A DNA stretch of 64,000 bases from Macrostomum lignano (lineage: Eukaryota), in NCBI GenBank assembly GCA_002269645.1, contig NIVC01003178.1:49890-113889 (forward strand), given 5' to 3'. The first letter of the stretch is position 1. Every line of letters starts with the position of its first letter. Under the pieces are notes generated by a model. The model searched no databases, was not told where the DNA came from, and worked only from the letters and a program-made list of their open reading frames with translations. Positions 271-64,000 of this stretch are shown here, piece after piece. Position numbers and translations under genes: made by a program.

Positions 271-6157
<5,887 letters not shown>

Positions 6158-6224
6158 CTGTCGGGCAGAGGCCGACCCCGGATGCGCTTCTCTAGCAACC
6201 ATGGCTGGTTTCCATGGAGATGCG

Positions 6225-6810
6225 CAATTGATAGAGCTGATCTATTGATCTCTATGATCGATTGATAGAGCTGATCCATTGATCTATGATTGATGATAGA
6301 GCTGATCGATTGATTTATGATTAATTGATAGAGCTGATCGATTGATTTATGATTAATTGATAGAGCTGATCGATTGATTTATGATTAATTGATAGAGCTG
6401 ATCGATTGATTTATGATTAATTGATAGAGCTGATCGATTGATTTATGATTAATTGTTAGAGCTGATCGATTGATTTATGATTAATTGATAGAGCTGATCG
6501 ATTGATCACTATGATTGATTGATAGAGCTGATCCATTGATATATGATTGATTGATAGAGCTGATCCATTGATCTATGATTGATTGATAGAGCTGATCCAT
6601 TGATCTATGATTGATTGATAGAGCTGATCCATTGATCACTATGATTTATTGATAGAGCTGATCCATTGATATATGATTGATTGATAGAGCTGATCCATTG
6701 ATCTATGATTGATGACAGAGCTGATCCATTGATTTATGATTAATTGATAGAGCTGATTGAGTGATCTATGATTTATTGATAGAGCTGATCCATTGATCTA
6801 TGATTGATTG
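6225..6810. repeat. ~31-bp minisatellite
   Basis: GATAGAGCTGATCGATTGATTTATGATTAATT-type units. Confidence 0.9.
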
Positions 6811-7869
6811 ATATTGATCAATTATTCTGTGATTGGTAGGTAAGAGCTGATCAATTGATTAAATTTGCGTTAATGGTGCATGACACAATGAATAATTCAT
6901 CAAGCAATTCCCTGTTGTTACTATTTCCCAAAACGCCGTATTTACGCCTCTCGTACACGCGACACGTCCGCAAGGCAAAGTCGTAATCTACATTCGTAAT
7001 CCCAAGAAAACAGCCGTTTTTCTTGTTGTCAAAGTTCTGCAGCATCGCGTTCCGCGCCCAGGAAGGAGCCCGCATTTCGATCTGTGCGCAATAGCACTAG
7101 AAATGCATATTTACTTTGCTAGTGAACGCCTGGCACTTGCAGCTGCGGAACACCTCGAGAAAAATTTACAATGCAATCATTTAAATTCGTGCGTTTTTAA
7201 CTACACACTCTACTTAAAGTAGAAGAAATCTACGTTGAAACAAAATAAAAAAGTATAAGCTACTCGGCCGAAATGTTTTATAACTAACAATTGCACCTAT
7301 ATTTGCATAGAAATGGGTTAGCAGGCTTGCGTGCATTTATTATCAATTACTATAAGTAGTTCTTGCGAGAATAACGGTTACAACAGCTAGACGATTTCTA
7401 AAGTAAGAAAATTAGGAGAACAATTAATTTACAGCGACTGGGCTACTTCGACATGCTTGCCTGGTTGACGGGGCAGATATTTGTACAGCTATTGGCATAT
7501 TGGTTCATAACAATAGGAATGCTGGATTGGATACTGTTAATTCCACTTTGAGCAGGAGCACTGTACGAGTATGAGATTGGTGCCGCTGGAGAGCAGATAG
7601 ACAAGCTAGTCTGTCTGTTTTAGTGTTTTTCTTTAGTGTCGGTCCGTCTGTCTGTCTTTGTGTCTCTCTGTCTGTCTGTCTGTCTATCTGTCTTATTGTT
7701 TGTCTTTAGTCTCTGTCCGTCTGTCTGTCCATGTGTCTGTCTGTCTGTCTGTCTTATTGTTTGTCTTTAGTCTCTGTCCGTCTGTCTGTCCGTCTGTCTG
7801 TCTGTCTGCCTGCCTGCCTGTCCATCTGTCTCCAACAAGCCAGCTAGCCACCCAGCCAGCAGGCGGTCA

Positions 7870-10800
7870 TCAGTGGTGCTGCTGCAAGGAGGCGGCAGCG
7901 GCGGAGCCCCTGGCCTTGGCGTGCAGCGCCTGCACGGCGGAGAAGAGCTCGCCGCCCAGGGAGCCGTAGTCGCGCAGGTATTCATCGAGGGAGTCCCGCG
8001 GGCCTCGCAGACTGCGCAGCAAAGGAGGCAGCTGGTCAAGCAGCTTCCGGCGGATGTGGCTGGCACTGACGCTGTCCAGACGGCCGTGGGCGGCGTCCAG
8101 TCGCTGGCTGAGGCGGGGCACGGCCGGCAGCAGAAGGTTGGCGGCGGCGTCCTGGCCGAGCTCCAGCGTGCAGACAATGCAGCCGTACAGAGAGGCCAGA
8201 TGAGGTCTGGAGCCGAGAAAATTTACAAAGACTTAGATAGAACCAAGACCTCAAACGTATGCGGATTAAATCAGAAATGGAAGACTTTAAATATCCAAAT
8301 ATTGAAATAAGTTTTACTTAAAAACTAAATCGATCAATGAGTCACGCTGAACCAAGACCCATACTGAACGAAGACTCAAACTGAGCGAAAACGCATGCTG
8401 AACCAAGACCCATACTAAACCAAGACTCATACTGAACCAAGACCCATAGTGAACGAAGACTTACACTGAACCAAGACCTGCACTGAACCGCCAAGACTCA
8501 TACTGAACCAAGACCCACACTGAACGAAGACCCACACTGAACGAAGACCCACACTGAACCAAGACCCACACTGAACCAAGACCCACACTGAACCAAGACC
8601 CACACTGAACGAAGACCCACACTGAACCAAGACCCACACTGAACCAAGACCCACACTGAACCAAGACCCACACTGAACCAAGACCCACACTGAACCAAGA
8701 CCCACACTGAACCAAGACCCACACTGAACCAAGACCCACACTGAACCAAGACCTACACTGAACCAAGACCCACACTGAACCAAGACCCACACTGAACCAA
8801 GACCCACACTGAACCAAGACCTACACTGAACCAAGACCCACACTGAACCAAGACTCATACTGAACCAAGACCCACACTGAACCAAGACTCATACTGAACC
8901 AAGACCCACACTGAACCAAGACCTACACTGAACCAAGACCCACACTGAACCAAGACTCATACTGAACCAAGACTCATACTGAACCAAGACCCACACTGAA
9001 CCGAGACCCACACTGAACCGAGACCTACACTGAACCAAGACTCATACTGAACCAAGACCCACACTGAACCAAGACTCATACTGAACCAAGACCCACACTG
9101 AACCAAGACCTACACTGAACCAAGACCCACACTGAACCAAGACTCATACTGAACCAAGACTCATACTGAACCAAGACCCACACTGAACCGAGACCCACAC
9201 TGAACCGAGACCTACACTGAACCAAGACCCACACTGAACCAAGACTCATACTGAACCAAGACTATAGTATAGTTAAAAGACCGGGAAAAAGTCAAGACCT
9301 ACGAATACCAAAGACAATAAACAAAGACACAAGATAGCCAGCTCACCTGGGCCGGGCCATATAATCCACCAGCAAGCGACAGACCCTGGCATAGAGCTGG
9401 TTGCTAGGCGAGGCGAATTTCGAGCACACGGCGCCCAGCTGCTTAGCCGAGAAGTCCCTCAGCGCCCAGTGATTGTCGGTCTCAGGCCGCTGGCACAGCT
9501 GCTTGCCCAGCACGCAGGTGAGGATGCTGGGCAGGATGAGGTGCAGGTAGCGCTCCAACTGCAGGTGAGGATTCTGCAGCAGGAACTGCAAGATGCGCAT
9601 GAGGTAGATGAGCAGGGCCAGGTTGTTAGTGAGCGAGTTCACCCGGACACCTTCGGCCACGAATACGATGAGACGAGGCAGGATCTGCTGCAGGCCGCTG
9701 TCCGTGGCCAGACTCTGCAGGGCTTCGGTCCGCCGGTCCTCCTGCGCATTGGGGTGGGGGTGGGCCAGGTTTAGCCATAGACAGGCGAGTAAAAAGCCAG
9801 CGCAATTGCTCTCTGGCAGCTCTCTGATTGGCTGCGGGAGCCATCATTATCCCACCCCTGCCCCAGCTGATCTCCCCACCCCTGCCCCAGCTGATCTCCC
9901 CACCCCTGCCCCAGCTGATCTCCCCACCCCTGCCCCAGCTGATCTCCCCACCCCTGCCCCAGCTGATCTCCCCACCCCTGCCCCAGCTGATCTCCCCACC
10001 CCTGCCCCAGCTGATTTCCCCACCCCTGCCCCAGCTGATCTCCCCACCCCTGCCCCACCTAATTTCCCCACCCCTGCCCCAGCTGATCTCCCCACCCCTA
10101 CCCCAGCTGATCTCCCCACCCCTGCCCCACCTAATTTCCCCACCACTGCCCCAGCTAATTTCCCCACCCCTGCCCCAGCTGATCTCCCCACCCCTGCCCC
10201 AGCTGATCTCCCCACCCCTGCCCCAGCTAATTTCCCCACCCCTGCCCCAGCTGATCTCCCCACCCCTGCCCCAGCTGATCTCCCCACCCCTGCCCCAGCT
10301 GATCTCCCCACCCCTACCCCAGCTGATCTCCCCACCCTGCCCCACCTAATTTCCCCACCACTGCCCCAGCTAATTTCCCCACCCCTGCCCCAGCTGATCT
10401 CCCCACCCCTGCCCCAGCTGATCTCCCCACCCCTGCCCCAGCTAATTTCCCCACCCCTGCCCCAGCTGATCTCCCCACCCCTGCCCCAGCTGATGATACC
10501 AACAGGCACTGAGGGCCTCACCTGGCTGCCAACGCAGGCCTCGGAGATCTCCCTGAAGAACATCTGCTGCTCGCGGCTCAACTCGTGGCAGACAACATCG
10601 CGCAGCCGGGCCACCTCCGGCTCCCTGGGCGCGGCGGCTGCCGATCTGGCTGACTGCCGGCCGCCCAGGACCGTCAGCTCCCACAGCGAGCGGGGCCGCA
10701 TCGGCCCAGCGGCTGCGGAAGTCGACAAGGAGGCCAGCGCCGCCGACCCGACGCCTGGCTCGACTAACGACGCGGATGAAGCCGCGGCGCCGGCGGCAGC

Positions 10801-40200: not shown

Positions 40201-41816
40201 CACACCCAGCTAATGTCCTCCCGAGTCAGTAGACGCCTCTGACAGGTCCTGGCAGATCTGAGCAGCTCTCGCTTGTCTTCGGCAGCGGCAGCAGCTGAGG
40301 AGGTGCCGCAGGCAACCACAGACTTGGCGCGTCGAGCAGACGTCGGTCGGCGATTCTCCTTAGCGACGGCGACCACCGTCGTTGGAGGAGGCGGCGTCAG
40401 CGAGGCGGGAGAAACGGCGGCGGTGGCGGCTGCAGCCTCGGCAGCTTCCAGACGCGACCGCAGCGACTCAAACTGAGCAATCTGGGCGCTCTTGGCCTGC
40501 GAAAGTAGGAGTAAACGAACGAGATGTCATGATAAAAGTCGCTAAAGAGACTCTGAAACGACTCTAAGGCGATACACGTGACTCTGACGTAACGGTATGA
40601 CAACTCTTGGCGGTAGAGTCGATTTGAGGCGTGCTTGAGTCGCCGAAATGTGTTTTAAGCGCATTTGCGTCGCTAGCACAACGATTCCTAAACGAATCTT
40701 TCGCAACTCTTTTTACGATTCTACAACTCGAGGGACGCGTTGAGTTGTTAACCAGTCACAAGAGTCGCCAGCGAGTTGTTTACAATGACTTCACTTTGTA
40801 GCGATGCTTGTCACGCTAACATTTTCAACGGATAATTAGGCAGTCATGACCCACACGCTGAGCGGTGCTCACAGTGCTCAGGGGTCCGGAACGGGTACCT
40901 TGATCTTCTAATTATAACTCCGCAAAAATTGACGAAGAAGGCATTGCAGCTGTACTGGTAAATGAATAACTACCTGCACTCGCTGGGCCAGGTGCTCCAG
41001 CTTGCGGCACAGCCGGTCCCGCCGCTCCCGCGCTTTCTCGCCCGACTCGCCGCCGCCTGCACCGTCGTTTTCACAGTCGCCGACGTCTCGAATTCGACGG
41101 GCCAGCTCGGCGTATCGTCTGGTCAGCTCGAGCAGCTCCCGGTGCATCTCGTGCAGCAGCTCGCAGGCGCGCAGCCTGTCGCTGGACAGAGTGACGGCGG
41201 CAGCGGCAGATGCGGCGGTGTCTGCGCCAGACGAAGTCGACGCCGTCGATCGAGGCGACGCTTTGCTGCTGGCGCTCTTCGCAATGGGCGCAGCGGCTGG
41301 CTGGGTTTTGAGCAGGCCCAGCACAGTCTGCAGGTTGGCCGGCAGGTTGTGCGAGGTGCCCGGCCGGCCGGCCAGGAAGCCAGGCGGTTTCGGCCGCTGC
41401 GGCTGCGGCCGGCGCCGCCGACTCTGACCGTTGGCATCGCTGTTGGGCTTCGACGCACCATCAGATTTCGATGATAGAATTTCTAGGCGCAGCGCTTCGA
41501 GCTGCTGCTCCAGGCTGCGACAGCGGGCCTCGATGTCGGCCGATTGCCGGCTGAAGACTTCAGCTGGAGGGGGCGGCGGCGGCGGCATGGAAGGAGGCGC
41601 GGCGGGCGGGCTGGTGGTCAGCAGGTGCCGGAACCGGGCGGTCTCGCTGGCCAGCTGGCGCATGTCGGCCTCAGCCGAGTTTCTCTCGCTTTCTAATCGG
41701 CGAATTTTGTCCAATAGGCGGCTTAACGACGAGGCCACGGCCAGCTTGGGGCTGCTGGGGGATGCGTCGGTGTTGGCTCCGCTCCAGGCCGGCGCGACTG
41801 GCGCTCGCGTCGTCAT
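40200..41816 (-). CDS. CEP57: Centrosomal protein CEP57-like; exons 41816-40974 and 40496-40200
   Basis: SLSRLLDKIRRLESERNSAE and EARCRSLEQQLE resemble the CEP57 centrosome-localisation domain; ELLHEMHRELLEL..LEHLAQRVQ|AKSAQI resembles its microtubule-binding domain. Confidence 0.7.
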
Positions 41817-54100: not shown

Positions 54101-55362
54101 TATATAAATTATAAATAGAACTAGACTAGGGAGGCTAAACAAAAACTAAAGTCAAAATGATTTCAGTTGTATTATAGATAATTAGTTTCAAATCTAATAT
54201 TAGGCCTATTGGATTAATCTTTGACAATGATGATTATTTAAACATAATAATTAATATAACTTTAGTTATCAAGTTACAAAACAATGTCAATGGTAAAAAG
54301 AGAAATTTAGATATAGGCCCTAGCTCGTAATAAAGATTTAATGTTGTGGCCATCTTGGTATGTGGCCATCTAGGCCTAAAACTAGGCCTAATTGACAAGT
54401 GCTAATGGCATGCTATGGCCTATGGGTAGCTTCTTTCTAAGTCATCATATTCCTAGGACCTAGACCTAGTCTGCTAGTGCTAGTCTTTCTCTTAGCCTAG
54501 CAGTAGGCAGCCTAGGCATGGTACCACTATGGGGGGGATGGTTGAACAACTAGGCCTAGGCTGATTAAATAGTAAGCATTGGACTATGCTTCATAATGCC
54601 TAATATTGATAGCATTCACATCCAATAGGACTCTAGGAGTAGGACTATTGATTAACCTACACGGCCACTGGGCCTAGGCTACAGGCCTACAGTGTATACT
54701 GAGTAGAGCAGTATGGCCATGGGCTATATCTACTAGCCTATCTATAGAATACGTCTATAATAATAGAAATTGCATGATAAGGTTTTAAGGTTATGACGAG
54801 ACTTATTATATTTTTATTTGACTCTTCTTTGCATTTTATTTAGTATATATCATACCCGCTATAGTAAAATCCGACACATCACACATTAAAATATACTGAC
54901 AGTCTCTAAACGAGGTAGTTTCGAAGAAAGCCTAATGTCGCGCGTGATTAAATAAAAAAGGCTCAGGTAACGGTTTTAATTCGCTAGGCCTCAAAAATAC
55001 GTCTCGAAATAGGAAATTTAATTGGCTTTTAATAGTTATAACTAAAAGTTTCTGCAGAATAGGGTTATATAGTTTTGTATACTATTCTAAATAACTTTTA
55101 GTGAAAATTTTATTTTATTTTTAAATAAAAATTTTTCTTTGGCATAGATATTTTCTATTATTTATTATTTATATTTATTAATTTCGAAGATAAGGATTAT
55201 TCAATTTTATTAAAATAGCTGCTTATTAAGAATTTTGAACTGTGGGTCTGGGACGTAGGTAGGATTTTTATCATACGTAAAAATCACACGTAGGTTAGGT
55301 ATGATTTTTGAGACCCTTGATTATTTCTTCAGCGCCAGTGTCGCCAAAGCTGCTGGCATGCG

Positions 55363-55461
55363 AGTAGTAGTATGTTATAAGGGGTTGCGCCACACTTATT
55401 GCTCGGGCGCATTGCGCGCCAGCTCGCTGGATGACTCAACCCCTTATAACATACTACTACT
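55363..55461. repeat. 25-bp perfect inverted repeat enclosing two small hairpins (candidate element terminus)
   Basis: AGTAGTAGTATGTTATAAGGGGTTG (55363-55387) / CAACCCCTTATAACATACTACTACT (55437-55461); internal GCGCA-T-TGCGC and CCAGC-TC-GCTGG. Confidence 0.85.
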
Positions 55462-55886
55462 ACCAGGAGGTCATGGGTTCAAGTGGGGTGTGATAAATAT
55501 AAAAATATATAAATATACATATATCTGTGACTGAGGGTGTTGAGGGTGAGGGCATGTGGGGATCATTGGCCTGTGGTATATTTCTCAGAAGACAGAATTT
55601 CCGGATTTTTTATACTTTTAAAAAGGGGGGGTGCCCTCGCCCTCATGCCCTCACTCATTTTGAAAATCACTAAAAATAACTGAAAAATGACTAAAAACAG
55701 GTGAAAATGGTCTGAAAACAGCGATTTTTTGTGATTTTCTATTTTTTTTAAAAAGTGCAATTTTCACGATTCCAGCTCTAAAACCATGAGAAAGGTTGGA
55801 TCCTCGGGTCAATTTAATGCAATTTCAGGTATATACAATATGAAAGTGTCATCCAATTCAACGATAGTAAATTTTATATATATAAA

Positions 55887-58124
55887 ATGGCCTTCAGTAA
55901 ACCATTATTTCTAGGAAATGCTTTAGATATTCAGTCAGCTATAACAAAACTACCACCCATCTTCGCCACTGGAAAATACCCAGGAGAACTTCATATTCCA
56001 GGGTATTCTTTTGCAGGTTACGTAGTGGCCTGAGTGAGGAAGTCAATGTCCTTGCTAGTCATCAAATAAGCACTTGTTAAAGTTTCTATAGTAAAAATGG
56101 AGCAAACAATTCGAGAAATTCTTCTGAAACCAATTGATGATAAGGTTGGGCATGATCAAATTCTTCATGATCTTTTCCAAGAAGAGTTAATAATTTCACA
56201 CAAGATTAAAGTTATTCAAATGAGACTAGGCAGACTATATGAAATATTAGCAGAAAATTATTTTGGATTCGAGAAGGTAAAAAAGATAGACCTGGTTCAC
56301 GTTGAGCGAAAGATTGCATTAGAGCTTAAATCTTCTGATAACACGGACAATTCATCAAGTCGTGAAAGGAATTATCAGAAACTATTAGACTATAAAAATT
56401 CTTATCCCACCTATCAGTTGTATTATGTATGCATCAATAGAACTACAAAGGAACCTAAGAATATTTTACTAGACAATGGAATCACCCTTATAACAGGAGA
56501 ATTTGCATTGAAATTTCTTTATGGTGATCAATACAAAAACATTATAACCAACATTAAACAAGTGCTTAGTGATTGGCGACACCTTCAAATTGCGGGAACT
56601 CCGTCCGATTCTAGTACGTCAATAACAGCCTCAAGTACCACTTCAGTTGAGAAATCTTCTGAAGGAACACAGGTAATTCCTGTTCCCAATCGGACTTCGT
56701 CCGCGAACCTATGGTTCGATGGTAACAAGCTTGAGGACATGGTGGAAATCCGCAGCCAAGCTCCTAAGTCCGAACGAAGTTGACAAGGATATGGAGAAGG
56801 TTCAGAGACTTAATGGGGGTGGGGCTGAAGGATCTGGTCAATCCTGATGAAGCCTTAAGATAAAGTCCAGCCTCTTTCGAAAGATTGAGGAACAACTGCC
56901 GGGTACAAATTTAGACAAGAGACTCAATCCAATTACAGACCGGCCTCGGTATGACAGTCTACCAATTAACCCAATCGATTGGACTGCTTACTATCATGAC
57001 AAAAACTATAGAGATGCTGAAAACACTTCTTCAAATCCAGAGGAAGCTCTAGCAAAGAAGCATATAGCTGATGAAAAAATGATAGCTGATTTAGATGCTA
57101 TTCCAACCAGTGACTTGTCTGTGAAAGAGAGACTCATTCGAAATCTAGTAAAGCGTATTATCAAGGCTAAAGTTCGGTTTGGATTAGGCATTCATACTCA
57201 CAACCCCAACAATTGTATAGACTGTCTAACAATTTATGGTAAGGGTCTTAGCTATGAAGATGCAGTAAAATTGCATAAAGAATATCGAAAGCCAAGAGTA
57301 TTTAGAAAAATGATTCACTATGCAAAAGACACAATTTGGCATGCAGATATTATTATCCTTCCTCCTGAAAGAGGTTACAAATATGCTCTCACTATCATAG
57401 ATGGTTTTACACGTTACGCCTGGGCAGTTCCTTTGAAAACAAAGACGGGAGCGGAAGTTGCAGAAGCTTTCCAAAAAGTATTTAAGGAATCAGGAAGACG
57501 ATCAGAGAGACTTTGTGTAGATGAAGGCAAGGAGTTTTATAATCAGCATATGTACAAGCTATATTCGTTTTCAAAAGACAACATTAGAAAGAAGGATGAA
57601 AAGGGTGAATATATAAACAAGATGTTTTCAATTTATGGCGAGTCCAAGAATGCAATGATTGAGAGGTTCAATCGTACTCTCACAAATAAACTCTGGTTTG
57701 AATTTGATCTACAGGGTAATCAGAAGTGGCTCCACACATTGCCAGCTATTGTTGAAAAATACAACAACACAATCCATTCTGAGATTCTGATAACTCCTTC
57801 AGAAGCATCTAAACATCCTGAGCGAGTACCAAAGCCAACTTTCGAGTATTCAAATGGAAACCAAACTTCAAAGTAGGTGACAAAGTTCATATCTATAGAT
57901 ATAAGGAGCACTTTGAAAAGGGTCGAAGAGGATATTGGAAAATTTCAGAAGTGTTTAGGATAAAGAAAATAGTTTACTCCAATCCCATAACCTACATTAT
58001 TGAGGATGAGAATGGAGAAGAAATTATTGGATCATTTTACAAATCCCAGCTTCTACCAGCAAATTTTTCAACTAAAAATGAGCGCCTATCGAACAAACTG
58101 CAAACGGGCGAAAGGTCAGATTGA
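55887..58124 (+). CDS. PLA2-integrase fusion: exon 55887-56018 + exon 56899-57876; C-terminal domain continues in the -1 frame to 58124
   Basis: Spliced product reads ELHIPGYSFAG|PGTNLDKRL..PINPIDWTAYYHDKNY..ADEKM (parvovirus-type PLA2), then HTHNPNNCIDC, then DDE core (WHAD, VDEGKEF, IERFNRTL). After a frameshift near 57850 comes FKVGDKVHI..FEKG..W..EVF..NPITY..DENGEEIIGSFYKSQL. Confidence 0.88.
56019..56898 (+). ncRNA. Group I self-splicing intron (IC1-like), 880 nt, with endonuclease ORF
   Basis: 5' exon ends in U and pairs U.G in P1; the intron ends in omega-G. P/Q/R/S elements AAATTGCGGGAA, AATCCGCAGC, GTTCAGAGACTTA, AAGATAAAGTCC; P3, P4, P7, P8, P9 and P9.0 pairings are present. Removal restores the reading frame. 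Confidence 0.95.
56097..56783 (+). CDS. Intron-encoded PD-(D/E)xK endonuclease, type II restriction enzyme-like (putative homing endonuclease)
   Basis: IQMRLGRLYEIL..KKIDLVHVERKIALELKSSDNTDNSSSRERNYQKL; intact 228-codon ORF in the P2.1 loop. The last ~70 codons overlap the ribozyme core. Confidence 0.75.
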   Translation: MEQTIREILLKPIDDKVGHDQILHDLFQEELIISHKIKVIQMRLGRLYEILAENYFGFEKVKKIDLVHVERKIALELKSSDNTDNSSSRERNYQKLLDYKNSYPTYQLYYVCINRTTKEPKNILLDNGITLITGEFALKFLYGDQYKNIITNIKQVLSDWRHLQIAGTPSDSSTSITASSTTSVEKSSEGTQVIPVPNRTSSANLWFDGNKLEDMVEIRSQAPKSERS

Positions 58125-58500
58125 AACGTCTGATTCACAACTACTAGCTGATAAAGAGGGTGAAGGAATTGGTGATATGATCAGTGGTGTCACAAACTTT
58201 TTATCAAATCATGGAAGTAAAATTGTGAGTGGAGCTGATGCAATAGGTAAAACAGCTACCACAGCGAAGAACATATTCGATGCGAAGAAATCATACAGTG
58301 ACATGTCTAAAGCAGGTGAGGAACTGGAATATATTAAAAAGAAACGTAGAGATAAAGAAGCAAAGAAAAGAATGGAAGAAGAGCAACAGATAGCTTCTCA
58401 ATCAAATAAGGCTATTCAAGATATTGTTAAAAAGGCTCTAGGAACAGCAGAACAGTCTCAAGTGTCTTTGAGACAAGGCAATGGTTTGAAGAAATTCTGA
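58078..58500 (+). CDS. Small virion/core-like protein of the Polinton (unknown function)
   Basis: ATG in TAAAAATG context; amphipathic segment after EGEG|IG, Lys/Glu-rich coil, C-terminal RQGNG|LKKF. Confidence 0.6.
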   Translation: MSAYRTNCKRAKGQIETSDSQLLADKEGEGIGDMISGVTNFLSNHGSKIVSGADAIGKTATTAKNIFDAKKSYSDMSKAGEELEYIKKKRRDKEAKKRMEEEQQIASQSNKAIQDIVKKALGTAEQSQVSLRQGNGLKKF

Positions 58501-58508
58501 CCTTAAAA

Positions 58509-58960
58509 ATGAGCGAGAAAAACACTGAAGCAAGACTCAATCGATATGTTCGAGAGGGAAAACCAAGATATGTTACTGTAAATAAGCAAAAGCAATATCT
58601 TTCTAAAGAGAAGATTCGAGAATTGCAAGAGAAACAGAAAGAACATGAAGGTGGAATAATTCCTCTATTAGGCTTACTACCAGCAATTTTGGGTGGTATC
58701 GGAGCAGCCTCAGGAGTTGGTACAATGATTGCAAAAAGTGTTAATACAGCCAACAATGCTAAACTAATAAGACAATAGAAAGCATTGAACGGCAAAAACT
58801 AGAAGAGTTGAAAAAGGCTCAAGGGAGTGGAGTATTAGTTGATGCGGCTAAAAGAGTCGAACAAGTACCCAGCGAAGCAGTCAAGTGGCTGCTAAAGACT
58901 TTTAAAGTTGAAAAGGAGAAACAGGGTAATGGGATAATTCTTAGACCTCATGAAGCTTAG
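58509..58960 (+). CDS. Adenovirus pX-like core protein candidate (frameshift near 58770)
   Basis: Basic N-terminus then EGG|IIPLLGLLPAILGGIGAA, resembling the adenoviral pX GG-FLP hydrophobic segment. Continues in another frame through AQGSGV..KQGNGII to TAG 58958-58960. Confidence 0.5.
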
Positions 58961-58980
58961 TTGAAATTTCTCTTATAAAA

Positions 58981-60345
58981 ATGGAGAACAAAAAGGATAT
59001 ACTGAGCATATATGAGGACAAAACTTTTAGCTTTTTCAAAAAGAAAGAAGACTATATTAAGATTTCTCCAACTCCAGGTAGCACTAATAATCTCAATGTT
59101 GCAGGAGGTCAAATAGTTCATGAAGTCAATTCAACAGAGTCATACATTCTCATGTCAGAGGCATTCGGTTGTATAAAATACTCAATAACACAACGAGATA
59201 ACACCGACTTGAATACGAACATTACTCTAGAACATAATTGGCCTATGAGACTTTTCTCTCAACTCATAGTTGACATTGGAGGAACAAAGAAAGTCTATAA
59301 TGATCCTGGAGAGTATGACACAATCTTAAAGTCCGTAATGTACTCAAAATTAATGAATGAAGTTGGAGAAGCATACGGATGGATTCCAGACACTGGAGAT
59401 GCTGGGACTGTTTCTGATATACCTCTAGCAAACAACGCAGATGCTGAAGCTGTGAGAACTGCAGCAATCGCTATGAAAAATAGACTCAATAAGAAGGATT
59501 CGAATACTGGATACATTAGGAGGCTTGAAAATTATAACAATGTCACTAATGCTCCAAACAGAGGTGGAACAATCAAACTATCATTAACACCTCTCATTGG
59601 GTTCCTTGATTGGCAGAAGATTAGCAAAGGAATTAAATATAAATTCACATGGACAAGAAAGACTAACGATGCTGAAATTTTCTTTGGAGCTGCCGGGACG
59701 GAAGCTAAGTTAACTATTAATAGCTTTGAGATTTGGATCCCTGCTATTACTTTGTCACCCAGTGCTGAAGCAGCTTTTCTAAAATCACTCAACAAGGACA
59801 TTACAGTATCATTTCCAGAGAGGGTAACGGTTCCACCACAACTCATTCAAGGAAGTCCATATACATGGAACATAGCCAACATCTCCAATATGCCACTTGC
59901 AATCTTTGTAGCTTTCAAATATGACGTAAACAACCCATCATATATAGTTAATGATCACAAGTATGTGTCTTACAAAACTGGAGCAAATTCAGTGAAAATA
60001 ACCCAGCTTCAAGTCAGATTAAATCAGGTGATGTATCCGAATGATTATGTTGAAATTGATCCAGTAGCTCAAGACATTCACAGAGCGTATGAAATGTACG
60101 AAGACATCTGCAGCCGTTTCGGTGTAACTCCTCCATTCAATAAACAAGACTTTCTAACCATCTATCCAATCTTTTGCTTTGATCTAACAGCTCAAGATGA
60201 GTTTCTGGTCAAGAGTGGAGTGAATATTCAATTATTTATCAAGAAGTCAACAAATGTTGAGCTGACTGCTTTTGCACTAATTCTTGAACAAACAAAGAAT
60301 GTAATAAAAGTTACCAGTGAATATCAAATGACCCGCGTCGAATAA
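58981..60345 (+). CDS. Major capsid protein (double jelly-roll, Polinton/adintovirus hexon)
   Basis: Intact 454 aa, beta-rich; NWPMRLFSQL, VRLNQVMYP, YPIFCFDLT resemble Polinton MCP motifs; sits next to the ATPase. Confidence 0.8.
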   Translation: MENKKDILSIYEDKTFSFFKKKEDYIKISPTPGSTNNLNVAGGQIVHEVNSTESYILMSEAFGCIKYSITQRDNTDLNTNITLEHNWPMRLFSQLIVDIGGTKKVYNDPGEYDTILKSVMYSKLMNEVGEAYGWIPDTGDAGTVSDIPLANNADAEAVRTAAIAMKNRLNKKDSNTGYIRRLENYNNVTNAPNRGGTIKLSLTPLIGFLDWQKISKGIKYKFTWTRKTNDAEIFFGAAGTEAKLTINSFEIWIPAITLSPSAEAAFLKSLNKDITVSFPERVTVPPQLIQGSPYTWNIANISNMPLAIFVAFKYDVNNPSYIVNDHKYVSYKTGANSVKITQLQVRLNQVMYPNDYVEIDPVAQDIHRAYEMYEDICSRFGVTPPFNKQDFLTIYPIFCFDLTAQDEFLVKSGVNIQLFIKKSTNVELTAFALILEQTKNVIKVTSEYQMTRVE

Positions 60346-60366
60346 GGTCATTTTTTCTTTTTTTAA

Positions 60367-61140
60367 ATGCCCAAAGTAAAATTTCAGCATGATCCTATTT
60401 TCCCTAATCCTCTTTTATGTTGTATTATCGGCGCTACAAATACGGGTAAAACATATTTACTATTCCATATTCTTACAAGTCCTGAAAAACTAGTTGACTT
60501 TAATGAGTTAGTTTTATATGTTCCCAGAGCATCTCAAATGGATCCAGAGTATCAGTTTCTAAAGCATGGCTTTGAAAATGGTCTCCCACCTTCTCTTATC
60601 AACTCCCTCTATCATGTCTACCAGGTGAGTGAGGATGCATCTCCTGAAGATATTAAGCATATTTGTAACGAGGCAGCCGACCTTGGTGGAGTGCAAAGCA
60701 CATCAGAAAATTCAGAAGTAATAGAGAAAATTTCTGTCACTCTTTCCCATACTCCAAATGAAGAAATTTTTCATAATGGACTAAAGACATGTGTGATATT
60801 GGACGATGTTTTGGGAGAGGCTAATCAAACATTTCAGGAAAGTCTGTTTCAGAGAGGCAGGCATGGAAACTGTTGTGGTTTTTATCTAGCTCAAAATTTT
60901 ACCAAACTAGATCGCAATACTGTCAGGGAGAATACGACATGTTACATAATCTTTAAACAAAAAGATACAAACTTAAATCACATTGCTAGAAATATAGAAA
61001 CGAATTATGAACCCGCTATATTCAAGGCTAAATGTAGAGAGGCTTGGAAAAAGAAGTATGGCTATATCTATATAAATACAAGAGCTGATGAGGATGAGCA
61101 AGATTTGTATAAGGATGTTCTAACTAAAATCCCATTGTAA
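60367..61140 (+). CDS. A32/FtsK-like DNA packaging ATPase
   Basis: Walker A GATNTGKT, Walker B CVILDD, RGRHGNCCGFYLAQ, VREN; intact 257 aa. Confidence 0.92.
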   Translation: MPKVKFQHDPIFPNPLLCCIIGATNTGKTYLLFHILTSPEKLVDFNELVLYVPRASQMDPEYQFLKHGFENGLPPSLINSLYHVYQVSEDASPEDIKHICNEAADLGGVQSTSENSEVIEKISVTLSHTPNEEIFHNGLKTCVILDDVLGEANQTFQESLFQRGRHGNCCGFYLAQNFTKLDRNTVRENTTCYIIFKQKDTNLNHIARNIETNYEPAIFKAKCREAWKKKYGYIYINTRADEDEQDLYKDVLTKIPL

Positions 61141-61142
61141 AA

Positions 61143-61870
61143 ATGACTAATGAATATATAAGAGAACTCATTAATTTAGCAAAGCAGCGAGAAATGTACA
61201 AATCCAGAAATGATGCTCAACGCTATTTGAAAATTGGAGAAGAGAGTTTATATGCAAGAGTGGCTCCATTAGCTCAAAAACCTGTCACAGAAAAGCTCGA
61301 TGAATTTATTGATGTCAATGCCAACCTTGTTGATAAACTTCAGAATCAAAAAGTTCCAGTTCCGCAATCAAGTACACCAAAAGGCCGATTTGAACCCTAG
61401 AAGTATTTGACAAAATAATTGAAGAAATTGAAAGATTCAATAACTCAAAGACCAGCGCCTAGTATACGGATTCAAAAAACTGATGCTGGATATATATTTG
61501 GATCATCTGTAATAGATGTTGAATTCCATGAACAAGGTCGAGACATCATTGTCAATGAAGTTCGAATGCCATTTTCTGAAGATCTTGAAGAGTTGTTCAA
61601 AATGCCTAAAGTAACTGAAAATGGTGAAGAGCTGAAGCAATTCAAGATGCAAACATTGCAGGATTATGTTAACCTCATTGAACATTGTAAAAATCCAGCG
61701 GCCAAATCAAGTGGGAATTATAAGCAAGCAGTAAGGATATTGAAAGATAATCCACCAGGATATCGAGTAAAACCGGGATCTGGACTCAGTGAAAGAGTGT
61801 TGACATTACTAGCCGCAAAAGCAGGGACATAACAATGTTGATAAAGAGCTAGTAGAATTACTTGCTTAAA
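61143..61870 (+). CDS. Conserved Polinton protein of unknown function, split by frameshifts (ORFs 61143-61400, 61419-61832)
   Basis: PVTEKL N-terminal motif; C-terminal GSGLSERVLTLLAAKAG/NNVDKELVELL resembles a C-terminal motif I recall from Polinton proteins. Confidence 0.5.
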
Positions 61871-61871
61871 A

Positions 61872-62657
61872 ATGGAAAAAGAAATAGAAAAAGTCAACAT
61901 CCTCTTGAGTAAAAAGTTTCAACGCACATTTGACTTCTTTTCAATTAAAAACCCATTTCGACAAACTCTAGGCACTCCTATAAATTTGTATGAAGATCGA
62001 GAATACGAAGCTGGTATAAAAAAGTTTGCAGTCTTTGATGCTATTAACAATATTGAAGGAGGCAATAATGAGTTGCGATACTCGAGGGATAGTGGTAGAA
62101 CATGGAAAAAATAAAGATTCAAGGATCTTGGGAAGTTAAAAGTCTGTCAAGCGAGATTCAAAGATTGCTAACAGCTGCAAATGATTGGAAAGAGGGGGCT
62201 ATTGTTTTCAGTGCAAGCCTAGACACGCGTAGAGTTGAGTTACGGTTAGCCACAGAGTATCAAGTTGATTTCAGGGATGCACATTCCAATAACTTTAGAA
62301 GACTGTTGGGATTCAATTCGAAGTGTATTTGAAACCATTTGAGAGAGCTCCAAATCCAGCTCGGATAGACGGAGCTAGAAGTGCGATCATGGTTCGTTGT
62401 CTCAATATCAAAGGGGGTTTTATCACTGATCCAGCCAATGGAATCATTTAATTGATAAGCAAATACTTCTTTCAATTCCATCGTTCTCTGTCCCAATGGG
62501 AAGTAAAATTATTCAAGAACCTGCAAATCCTGTGTACCTACCACTAACTACAAACATGTTGAGCACATTCGACTTTGTCATCGAAGATGAGTCTGGTGTT
62601 CTATACGACTTTGATGGCGAGGAAATATTTATAAATCTACACGTACGACAAATATGA
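61872..62657 (+). CDS. Minor capsid protein (penton, single jelly-roll), with about 2-3 frameshifts
   Basis: INNI..GNN.LRYS, W..I.I..GSWEV, LLGF, and C-terminal SVPMGSKIIQEPANPVYLPL..DESGVLYDFDGEEIFINLHVRQI. Confidence 0.75.
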
Positions 62658-62666
62658 GTGTTAAAA

Positions 62667-63094
62667 ATGAGCGAAGCTGAGACATGGAATGCATTTAAAC
62701 AAAAGTTTGGACTGACACTACGACTAATATTGATCTGATAAATTGGGCAAAATATCTCAAGTTAAAACCATTTCGCTATGCCATGAGAGATGAAATTGTT
62801 GATTTACCACAGTATGGTTACTTTATGACAAATATTCACACTTCGAAGAACGGGTATACATCATTCAGCTATATTTTCAGCTCCTGATAAGGTTTATTTT
62901 TTTGATTCCTATGCACTACACCCCACACTGGAAATTATGGAAAAGTTTAATCACACAAAGAATAGAATATGTGGAGACATGGAAAAACAAATTCAAACTT
63001 TGATAAGAAATATTTGTGGTCAAATGTCGCTGTACTTTTTACACGAATCGATAAAGGAGATAGCTATAATGAAATTTTGCAGCAATTAAAATGA
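62667..63094 (+). CDS. Adenain-like cysteine maturation protease, frameshifted
   Basis: TNIDLINWAK.L, NIHTS..G.HH, YFFDSY, IQ....NICGQMSLYFL pieces (His-Asp-Gln-Cys order) spread over shifted frames. Confidence 0.7.
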
Positions 63095-64000
63095 GTTACA
63101 AGAATACTGCAATCAATTTGGTTACTCGTCAAATTCAAATGATATAGCGCCTGGAATAACAATAGCGTTAGCTGATGATCGTACATCAATGAAAATGAAG
63201 GATATAAGAGAGAGGAAATAGATAATTTATTGTTAGCAAAGAGAAATGTTGCAGACTCTTAATTCAAAGGAAGATAGTGACCAATGAATAATCAGCCATG
63301 CTACAATTAATTGACGATGCTCATGGGCGCTAAACAATGTCTACACAAAACCGAAATTGACACTAAGATGTATTCTAAAAACCGAAATTTACACTTTGTA
63401 GCAGAAAGGCAAGGTACTGTGGGGGTACAGAGAGTTCGAAATTAGTCAATATTCTTCATTACTGACTTCAACGCTTCCCATCCTGACATGAAAGTGACCG
63501 CTTCTCATAACTCTTCAGCAGCATATCATGTTGCAGATTCAAACCAGCTTCAGAATGGAGCAGTGTAGATGACTGCAGACAAGCTGGATACGATTCAATT
63601 TCTGAAAAGAGCTAGGAAAGTTGTAGAGATAAAGTTGGAAGGAGAGGTGTGGCCTGGTTGTCTGTTAGTGTGAGCCTAAATGGAAAAACTGGACACCTGT
63701 TGAACAAAGTGCACCCATTGAAGCTACGAAGAGGCAATGCACATCTTAGGAAAAAAATACCCAATCCCTCATATTATTTCCATTATTCCTCTAATTTTTC
63801 TGGTTCCGTAAAGCTTACAAAATTGAATTACTTGAGAGACAAACAGTGGTTAATGATTTAGTGTGGCCTATAGATAGACTTCAAGCTGTACCAAAGCTAT
63901 ACGTAGACAATGCACTTGAATCAGTGGAGCTGCGACTTAAGGCGGGGACTAGGTTTCAATCTTATACAGGATATATTCCCCACTAGCAACACGTCAAAAC
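63091..64000 (+). pseudogene. Fibre-like ORF remnant, heavily frameshifted, runs off the window
   Basis: Repeats of the YxKxEID type (GYKREEIDNLL, YTK.EIDTK, YSK.EIY) in shifting frames; starts at an AAAATG. Confidence 0.35.

Follow-up and report, generated by a model that had tools for sequence, protein, structure and literature searches.

We analysed a 64,000-nt stretch of the Macrostomum lignano genome (GenBank assembly GCA_002269645.1, contig NIVC01003178.1, positions 49,890 to 113,889 of the forward strand), which we call the window. Its right-hand end is occupied by a Polinton-type element, in which a gene for a phospholipase A2 (PLA2) domain fused to an rve integrase is interrupted by an intron. 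Judged by sequence, positions 56019-56898 are a group I intron that interrupts a protein gene of this element, which is integrated in the nuclear genome of a bilaterian animal. The intron contains an open reading frame (ORF) for a predicted Eco47II-family nuclease, and the element is devoid of GGNCC, the likely recognition site of that nuclease. Table 1 lists the features with their coordinates.

Using Rfam models, we found a single match to RF00028 in the window, at 56506-56889 (88.9 bits against a gathering cut-off of 50, E 2e-21). An earlier note, made from the letters of this stretch alone, had proposed a group I intron at 56019-56898 and a covariance-model search as a check; this score, together with compensatory changes in P3, P4 and P7, bears the proposal out, and all helices it drew were recovered in place, except that the covariance model assigns G56755 to P6 and not to P4. 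The note had also read the P7 of this intron as a compensatory variant, rightly so: the pairing is kept across GACUU/AAGUC (window), GACUA/UAGUC (the metagenomic locus L069) and GAGCA/UGCUC (a second intron family of the same host, family B). In an alignment of six intron cores of three sequence types, 7 of 31 core pairs (in P3, P4, P7 and P9) are changed on both sides and 95% of the cells pair, as compared to 34-50% in slid controls and with none of 500 shuffles equal to the observed value; the rows being related, the figure should not be read as a p-value.

P1 is formed by the last 5 nt of exon 1 and the guide sequence, with U56018 facing G56028. P1 and P2 fold alike in the window intron and three related introns, the P2 stems varying in sequence while the pairing is kept. 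Both the U.G pair in P1 and the omega-G agree with the exon junction. Spliceosomal splicing was ruled out because the 3' end of the intron is not AG. Subgroup IC1, to which the earlier note likened the intron, would be marked by P2.1, P5abc and P9.1/9.2; P2.1 and a P5abc-like extension are present and there is no space for P9.1/9.2. The names of the peripheral core motifs in Table 1 (P5abc-like, GAAA loop, receptor-like motif) are our presumed labels. An optional 30-nt double hairpin with UUCG loops in the P5 extension (window ~56688-56717) occurs in the window intron and in L165 of family B and is absent from L069, L166, L167 and L168. The window family (family A) and family B may thus have exchanged sequence. 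A contig of run X11 has a 36-nt insertion just 3' of the P2.1 5' strand (window 56063-56069), and loose ends are also seen in run X3.

The uninterrupted natural protein matches Phospholip_A2_4 from residue 34 (E 4e-9) and joins a parvovirus-type PLA2 to an rve integrase; its PLA2 part is 40% identical to Hydra adintovirus PLA2X. The earlier note had the exons joining in frame with an integrase: the integrase is present and the frame is continuous in the uninterrupted natural protein, but the interrupted domain is the PLA2. The intron separates a Gly from a Pro of this domain, and this Gly-Pro is invariant in four aligned homologues. Rfam-scored copies of the intron (n = 28) all belong to family A; 27 sit at the same site and the remaining one is 5'-truncated. 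The reading frame of the window copy stops early (325 residues, versus 408 in 10 of the 28 copies).

Intron-less alleles, which the earlier note had suggested looking for, do exist. Exon 1 gave 135 candidates and 40 scored matches, from which 30 loci were fetched; 19 go on into the intron, three continue directly into exon 2 with an exact junction, and eight switch to other DNA. A database protein (P0166) also joins exon 1 straight to exon 2. With natural intron-less copies and this protein, the intron junction is therefore fixed exactly. Exon 1 ends in the five bases required by P1 in all intron-bearing alleles examined that have an intact 5' end, and the three intron-less alleles differ there; the two kinds of allele can be told apart by the last six bases of exon 1. 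The joined junction reads GGNCC, as would any Gly-Pro codon pair.

The ORF, which the earlier note overlooked, lies within the P2.1 loop and its frame stays open through the ribozyme core, giving a nuclease part of ~160 residues and a read-through tail; the core read as protein likewise forms the C-terminal tail in 12 of the 34 top homologues. Candidate catalytic residues are E49, D65, E76 and K78, which are invariant or nearly so across 18 aligned proteins. A structure model of the ORF (164 residues, pLDDT 90) shows no additional DNA-binding domain. According to Foldseek, the first match of this model is EcoO109I (E 9e-5), and with VIA-align EcoO109I (Z 9.8, root-mean-square deviation 3.7, 158 aligned residues) is the sole chain among 48,161 at Z of at least 8. 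PADLOC and PHROGs gave no match for the ORF. GGNCC is its likely recognition site, since Eco47II homologues are assigned GGNCC (PMC10305163), EcoO109I cleaves RG^GNCCY (PMC3089450), and the element is purged of GGNCC. A long ORF is found in 15 of the 28 copies, each keeping all four candidate residues, and the ORF is truncated in the other 13. Compared with the window copy, the ratio of nonsynonymous to synonymous substitution rates (dN/dS) is 0.15-0.27 in 7 of 10 pairs, and we take the ORF to be under purifying selection. Its start context, AAAATG, equals that of the element genes, which may be mere translation context.

Distant homologues (27-41% identical) are ordinary restriction-modification (R-M) enzymes, with a C5 methyltransferase motif at 81 of 89 loci and seven of the eight misses on less than 2.6 kb. 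We note that tail-to-tail pairs of an Eco47II-type nuclease and a C5 methyltransferase are widespread on giant-virus and metagenome contigs (L059-L148), and that one protein (P0033) is a fusion of the two. No methyltransferase was matched, beside the nuclease or elsewhere, among the element ORFs scanned, for which the window copy and an intron-less copy (C944) were read together.

The element in the window has no GGNCC at all (Table 1), the last site in the window, at 54670, being in host DNA. In non-overlapping family A DNA (15.7 kb), none is found where 17.7 are expected, which makes GGNCC the most depleted of 64 palindromic patterns; the W and S variants are both absent and near-cognates are common, while CTNAG (34 observed, 57 expected) and TTAA (100 and 148) are also low but not absent. 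Family A proteins contain no Gly-Pro and five Pro-Gly in 2,814 residues. The intron-less C944 has a single GGNCC in ~14 kb, namely the insertion site. All 28 copies together (69.7 kb) hold five GGNCC, three in foreign DNA and two in copies with a broken ORF. Family B has one site where 11.1 are expected (9 kb; this figure uses L292, as L291, 9 kb beside a family B intron with 33 GGNCC, is mostly host DNA and was dropped). Codon-order shuffles reached the observed depletion in 0 of 1000 trials for family A and gave P 0.012 for family B. No such depletion is seen in L293, an adintovirus-like contig with an uninterrupted PLA2 and no intron (11 observed, 12.9 expected), in host Wnt loci (61 and 68) or in AT-rich flanks (8 and 8.5; 8 and 6.0). 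Shuffling the whole window (84 and 214) is inflated by skewed repeats, and local models were used instead.

The only close relative for which DNA was available is L069, an independent metagenomic case whose PLA2 is interrupted at the same position by a group I intron (80.6 bits) with an ORF 55% identical to that of the window intron; among 17 scanned loci with nuclease homologues, it is the only one with an intron. Family B (L165-L168; contigs C22, C10, C374 and C826 of G000) also has its intron at this position; it lacks the ORF, is ~320-350 nt long and scores 60-66 bits with Rfam. Families A and B share ~65% nucleotide identity around the integrase, their capsid proteins are 24% identical, and their gene orders differ. 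The frame implies that the family B intron ends in A in L165 and L167 and in G in L166 and L168. We also found at least 122 viral stretches, many of them on giant-virus contigs, that share an 18-base group I core motif (L169-L248); no nuclease or PLA2 was found at 80 viral loci sharing this motif.

Copies of the window intron are mosaic, with breakpoints at the intron edge: in L024, exon 2 falls in the window clade (support 100/100) and the intron and exon 1 in another (100/99 and 95/93), and L027 is the reverse. Exon trees, which are weakly resolved here, place intron-less alleles among intron-bearing ones. Within 3 nt of the insertion site there are three deletion junctions of independent origin, as compared to three elsewhere in the next 1.5 kb. 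Deletion derivatives (L044, L046, L047, L055, L056, L057; L054; L058) retain the left end and exon 1, and one junction is amplified to 6 of the 30 loci. These mosaics and junctions would fit breaks at the site, and would also fit general recombination. As for a homing endonuclease, the ORF is intron-encoded and, given GGNCC as the site, its target spans the insertion point and is broken by the intron.

The host is a bilaterian flatworm and the intron is nuclear, because the genome has 86 Wnt exon matches, one of them 100% identical to a Macrostomum lignano protein (next matches 38-42%), and three contigs (C67, C506 and C952) hold both Wnt exons and intron copies. The same contigs confirm the nuclear-integrated animal element of the earlier note, and they largely refute a chimera with protist or symbiont DNA, the finding that the note said would move the intron to another host. 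The 5' motif of the intron has 141 matches of three types on many contigs; copy numbers are inflated by duplicated regions, and Wnt exons likewise occur 2-4 times. The queried stretch was found in 20 of 24 listed sequencing runs from eight studies under one organism label, and no RNA data set was listed for it.

Polintons and adintoviruses are recognised by terminal inverted repeats and a 5-8 bp target duplication (bioRxiv 2023.08.22.554363). The ends of C944 are AGTAGT in inverted orientation, 6 bp of host target DNA are duplicated around it, and the element encodes an rve integrase, a jelly-roll capsid protein and a packaging ATPase. C944 is without the ATPase region and the window copy ends at the contig end, so that the gene content is combined from both. 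Protein-primed polymerase B and a protease are also expected of such elements; polymerase and protease families gave no library match among the element ORFs scanned. One large element ORF contains an endonuclease VII domain and shares 28% identity with the large ORF of L293; from its motifs, it may be pPolB2. The endonuclease VII domain in this putative polymerase lies at L150:8272-9999 and a primase-D5 helicase at L152:1312-3605. Scanning viral contigs with the integrase, an integrase alignment and the ATPase gave no relatives. Just outside C944 lies an 865-residue ORF with an LRAT-like domain (L152:7236-9830).

Table 1. Features of the Polinton-type element and its group I intron (window coordinates)
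Feature	Position	Strand	Details
Left terminal inverted repeat	55363..55685	+	Starts AGTAGT; 91% match to inverted right end of copy C944
Terminal hairpin of left terminal inverted repeat	arms 55363-55411/55413-55461	+	Fold of element end
Element DNA without GGNCC	55363..64000	.	0 observed, 10.2 expected (8.6 kb)
Exon 1, PLA2-integrase gene	55887..56018	+	44 codons, Gly last; final 5 nt are a P1 strand
P1 (U.G wobble 56018/56028), P2 (56033-56056), 5' strand of P2.1	56014..56062	+	Fold z -2.3; P2 covaries among intron types
Split target, GGT (56016-56018) and CC (56899-56900)	56016..56900	+	GGNCC when intron absent; intron-less alleles carry GGNCC there
Group I intron	56019..56898	+	880 nt, omega-G at 3' end; RF00028 88.9 bits
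Intron ORF, predicted Eco47II-family PD-(D/E)xK nuclease	56097..56783	+	228 residues; RE_Eco47II (PF09553) 29.5 bits, cut-off 25.9
Ribozyme core P3-P9	56569..56898	+	P5abc-like extension, GAAA loop 56651-56654, receptor-like motif in P6a/b
Exon 2, remaining PLA2 and rve integrase	56899..57876	+	Pfam rve E 4e-10, PLA2 E 0.002
Double jelly-roll major capsid protein	58981..60345	+	PF21738 E 2e-13
A32-type packaging ATPase	60367..61140	+	PF04665 E 6e-6

Taken together, we consider it probable that this is a mobile group I intron for which a captured type II restriction enzyme serves as homing endonuclease, with a single site left to it by the purge. The ribozyme would excise itself and restore the PLA2-integrase frame. 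The ORF product would be a nuclease cutting unmethylated GGNCC, captured from an R-M system of the kind found on giant-virus contigs, and the element, having no methyltransferase, would protect itself through the loss of all its GGNCC sites. The insertion site could not be removed by a silent change, because only GGN-CCN codons can encode the conserved Gly-Pro in the PLA2 loop; the intron would fill it instead. An intron-less sister genome would then be cut once, at the insertion site, and either repaired from an intron-bearing copy or lost; homing repair would co-convert the exon-1 end needed by P1, and unpurged competitors would be cut many times. The single-site specificity of a five-base cutter would come from the make-up of the target genome and not from a long recognition site. 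The intron probably acts like a homing intron with its specificity logic inverted, and the site purge and the restriction-type ORF suggest a new way of intron spread. Expression would have to be confined to the lytic phase, or the enzyme kept out of the nucleus, because host chromosomes are full of GGNCC. We see the case as evenly balanced for a fuller version, in which an animal DNA virus has a self-splicing intron that codes for an unmodified five-base restriction enzyme, the virus owes its immunity to site erasure and the intron plug, and the enzyme drives exact homing and destroys unpurged rival or helper viruses; if true, this would suggest that these animal Polintons multiply as genuine viruses when they co-infect, perhaps outside the nucleus.

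Several observations weigh against the captured restriction enzyme. We infer splicing, cleavage, expression and homing from DNA, and the spliced junction of an intron-bearing allele was not found in contigs of four runs that are only guessed to be RNA; these contigs are uninformative on splicing because the only joined exons in them are those of the intron-less allele. The host flank has 84 GGNCC in 55 kb, and a nuclear enzyme would be lethal unless its expression were limited. The ORF is 13% identical to EcoO109I and ~30% identical to methyltransferase-paired relatives, so that its specificity may have drifted, and its close relatives form a clade separate from R-M enzymes (93/93 support, not starred). 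In three of the ten pairs, of low divergence, dN/dS is 0.56-1.29, and the window copy is common to all pairs. The set of break junctions is small and was chosen by exon-1 score. As for the purge, synonymous shuffles with fixed proteins give modest values (P 0.02 for family A, 0.053 for family B), repeat-rich host DNA in the window is itself ~2-fold low (83 observed, 156 expected), and the outgroup control consists of L293 only. The intron-less L151 has 20 GGNCC in 10 kb, i.e., the insertion site, 15 in positions 5021-7940 and four elsewhere in element genes; the stretch 5021-7940 interrupts the element match and the copy is decayed, which speaks partly against a strict purge. Finally, the purge need not come from the window ORF, because family B is purged without an ORF and intron-less family A copies persist.

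The last point also speaks for an external driver of the purge, e.g. the R-M system of a giant helper or competitor virus, in which case the intron would have spread because it hides an unmutable site, and the nuclease would have been gained later from that system. We regard this as unlikely, though a real contender, and it is compatible with the captured restriction enzyme as an earlier stage of it. It would explain why intron-less family A copies are purged as well, and it sits well with the nuclease-methyltransferase pairs on giant-virus contigs and the many introns with the same core motif there. However, the ORF has been kept by introns of distant elements and appears to be under purifying selection, no helper virus was found for the host, and family B shares its host with family A, so that cutting in trans is possible. 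That the ORF is a conventional homing endonuclease, which evolved a long site around the junction and left the lack of GGNCC as a relic, would dispose of the toxicity to the host, and in I-Ssp6803I a restriction-enzyme fold is used to read 23 bp (PMC3384342); the separation of the intron-ORF clade from the R-M clade also favours it. We think it distinctly unlikely, as young copies that are nearly identical are fully purged, the purge extends to family B with its divergent capsid, the only copies in which GGNCC has come back in homologous DNA are two of the 28, each with its ORF broken, and the 164-residue model has no extra DNA-binding domain.

A fixed, vertically inherited intron whose ORF is no longer a nuclease, but a splicing aid or a decaying passenger, is very unlikely indeed. 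Such an ORF could well be truncated in 13 of 28 copies, missing from family B introns and without visible expression in the four runs guessed to be RNA; the four catalytic candidates are nevertheless kept in all 15 long-ORF copies and nearly invariant across the 18 aligned proteins, and the intron-less alleles are interspersed among intron-bearing ones in exon trees. We attach next to no credence to an assembly artefact or DNA of a protist symbiont, even though protist Polinton-like viruses are known to have group I introns: this reading is largely refuted by the 141 intron 5'-motif matches over many contigs, three of them with Wnt exons, by the intron-less copy with its 6-bp target duplication in host DNA, and by the presence of the stretch in 20 of 24 listed runs from eight studies.

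Known systems offer partial likenesses to the captured restriction enzyme, the preferred reading. Protist Polinton-like viruses (Rhodomonas lacustris, Paulinella, Desmodesmus) have RF00028 introns of 309-376 nt, i.e., the same intron class in a small integrating DNA virus; theirs interrupt a short gene that precedes the one for the capsid, are described without an identified endonuclease and are from protists only, as far as the available part of the source goes (PMC12220804), whereas the M. lignano intron is in an animal, in a PLA2 loop and with a nuclease ORF. Bodo saltans virus has homing group I introns with HNH and GIY-YIG enzymes in essential viral genes, together with endonuclease-less offspring introns, and a role in virus competition was proposed; it differs in being a giant virus of protists, and the available part of that report describes neither a restriction-type enzyme nor a site purge (PMC5871332). 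I-Ssp6803I likewise uses a PD-(D/E)xK restriction fold as a homing endonuclease, but is cyanobacterial, PvuII-like and has a 23-bp site, while the M. lignano ORF is of the Eco47II/EcoO109I kind with a presumed 5-bp site (PMC3384342). With Eco47II-type R-M systems and EcoO109I the ORF shares the Pfam family, the fold, the catalytic residues and a presumed GGNCC core; it differs from R-M systems in being intron-encoded, with no methyltransferase partner found and self-protection apparently by site loss. Adintovirus PLA2X is a parvovirus-type PLA2 with the conserved Gly-Pro in animal Polinton-type viruses, whereas the PLA2 of the M. lignano element is fused to an integrase and interrupted by an intron (PMC8502044).

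Group I introns have been called absent from metazoans save non-bilaterians and putative ones in five sharks (PMC10964413), which qualifies, by the sharks, the statement of the earlier note that animal cases are mainly from non-bilaterian mitochondria. Mitochondrial introns, not necessarily of group I, are also known from bryozoans (PMC9240083). No such animal-Polinton intron is reported in the available parts of PMC8502044, PMC11296320 and bioRxiv 2023.08.22.554363, and the main texts of the open-access literature turned up neither an animal Polinton with a group I intron nor an intron nuclease of the Eco47II type. The earlier note had called its finding undescribed; within that literature this holds for animal Polintons, but not for Polinton-like viruses as a whole, given the protist introns (PMC12220804). 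The new point with respect to the protist reports is the animal host, and the restriction-type nuclease with the site purge is the most unusual part.

With at least 141 intron copies in the chromosomes of M. lignano, a laboratory flatworm, self-splicing from a bilaterian nuclear locus becomes testable. If these readings hold, the locus would also stand as a present-day intermediate on the way from restriction enzymes to homing endonucleases, with a third route to self-immunity by site loss and an intron plug. Homing, purifying selection and a genome-wide purge would all require encounters and competition between element genomes, a point relevant to whether animal Polintons are active as viruses and whether they rely on larger ones.

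In a third abundant family (family C) the PLA2 is uninterrupted, with 150 genes scored among 426 candidates, and a capsid frame of 432 codons lies ~11 kb away from it; examples in G000 include C2606:4628-16511, C4945 and C66. Other host features in the window are gene pieces for a class C G protein-coupled receptor transmembrane domain (2980-3504, + strand) and a Cep57-like domain (40911-41816, - strand), and the window flanks are rich in G-skewed tandem repeats.

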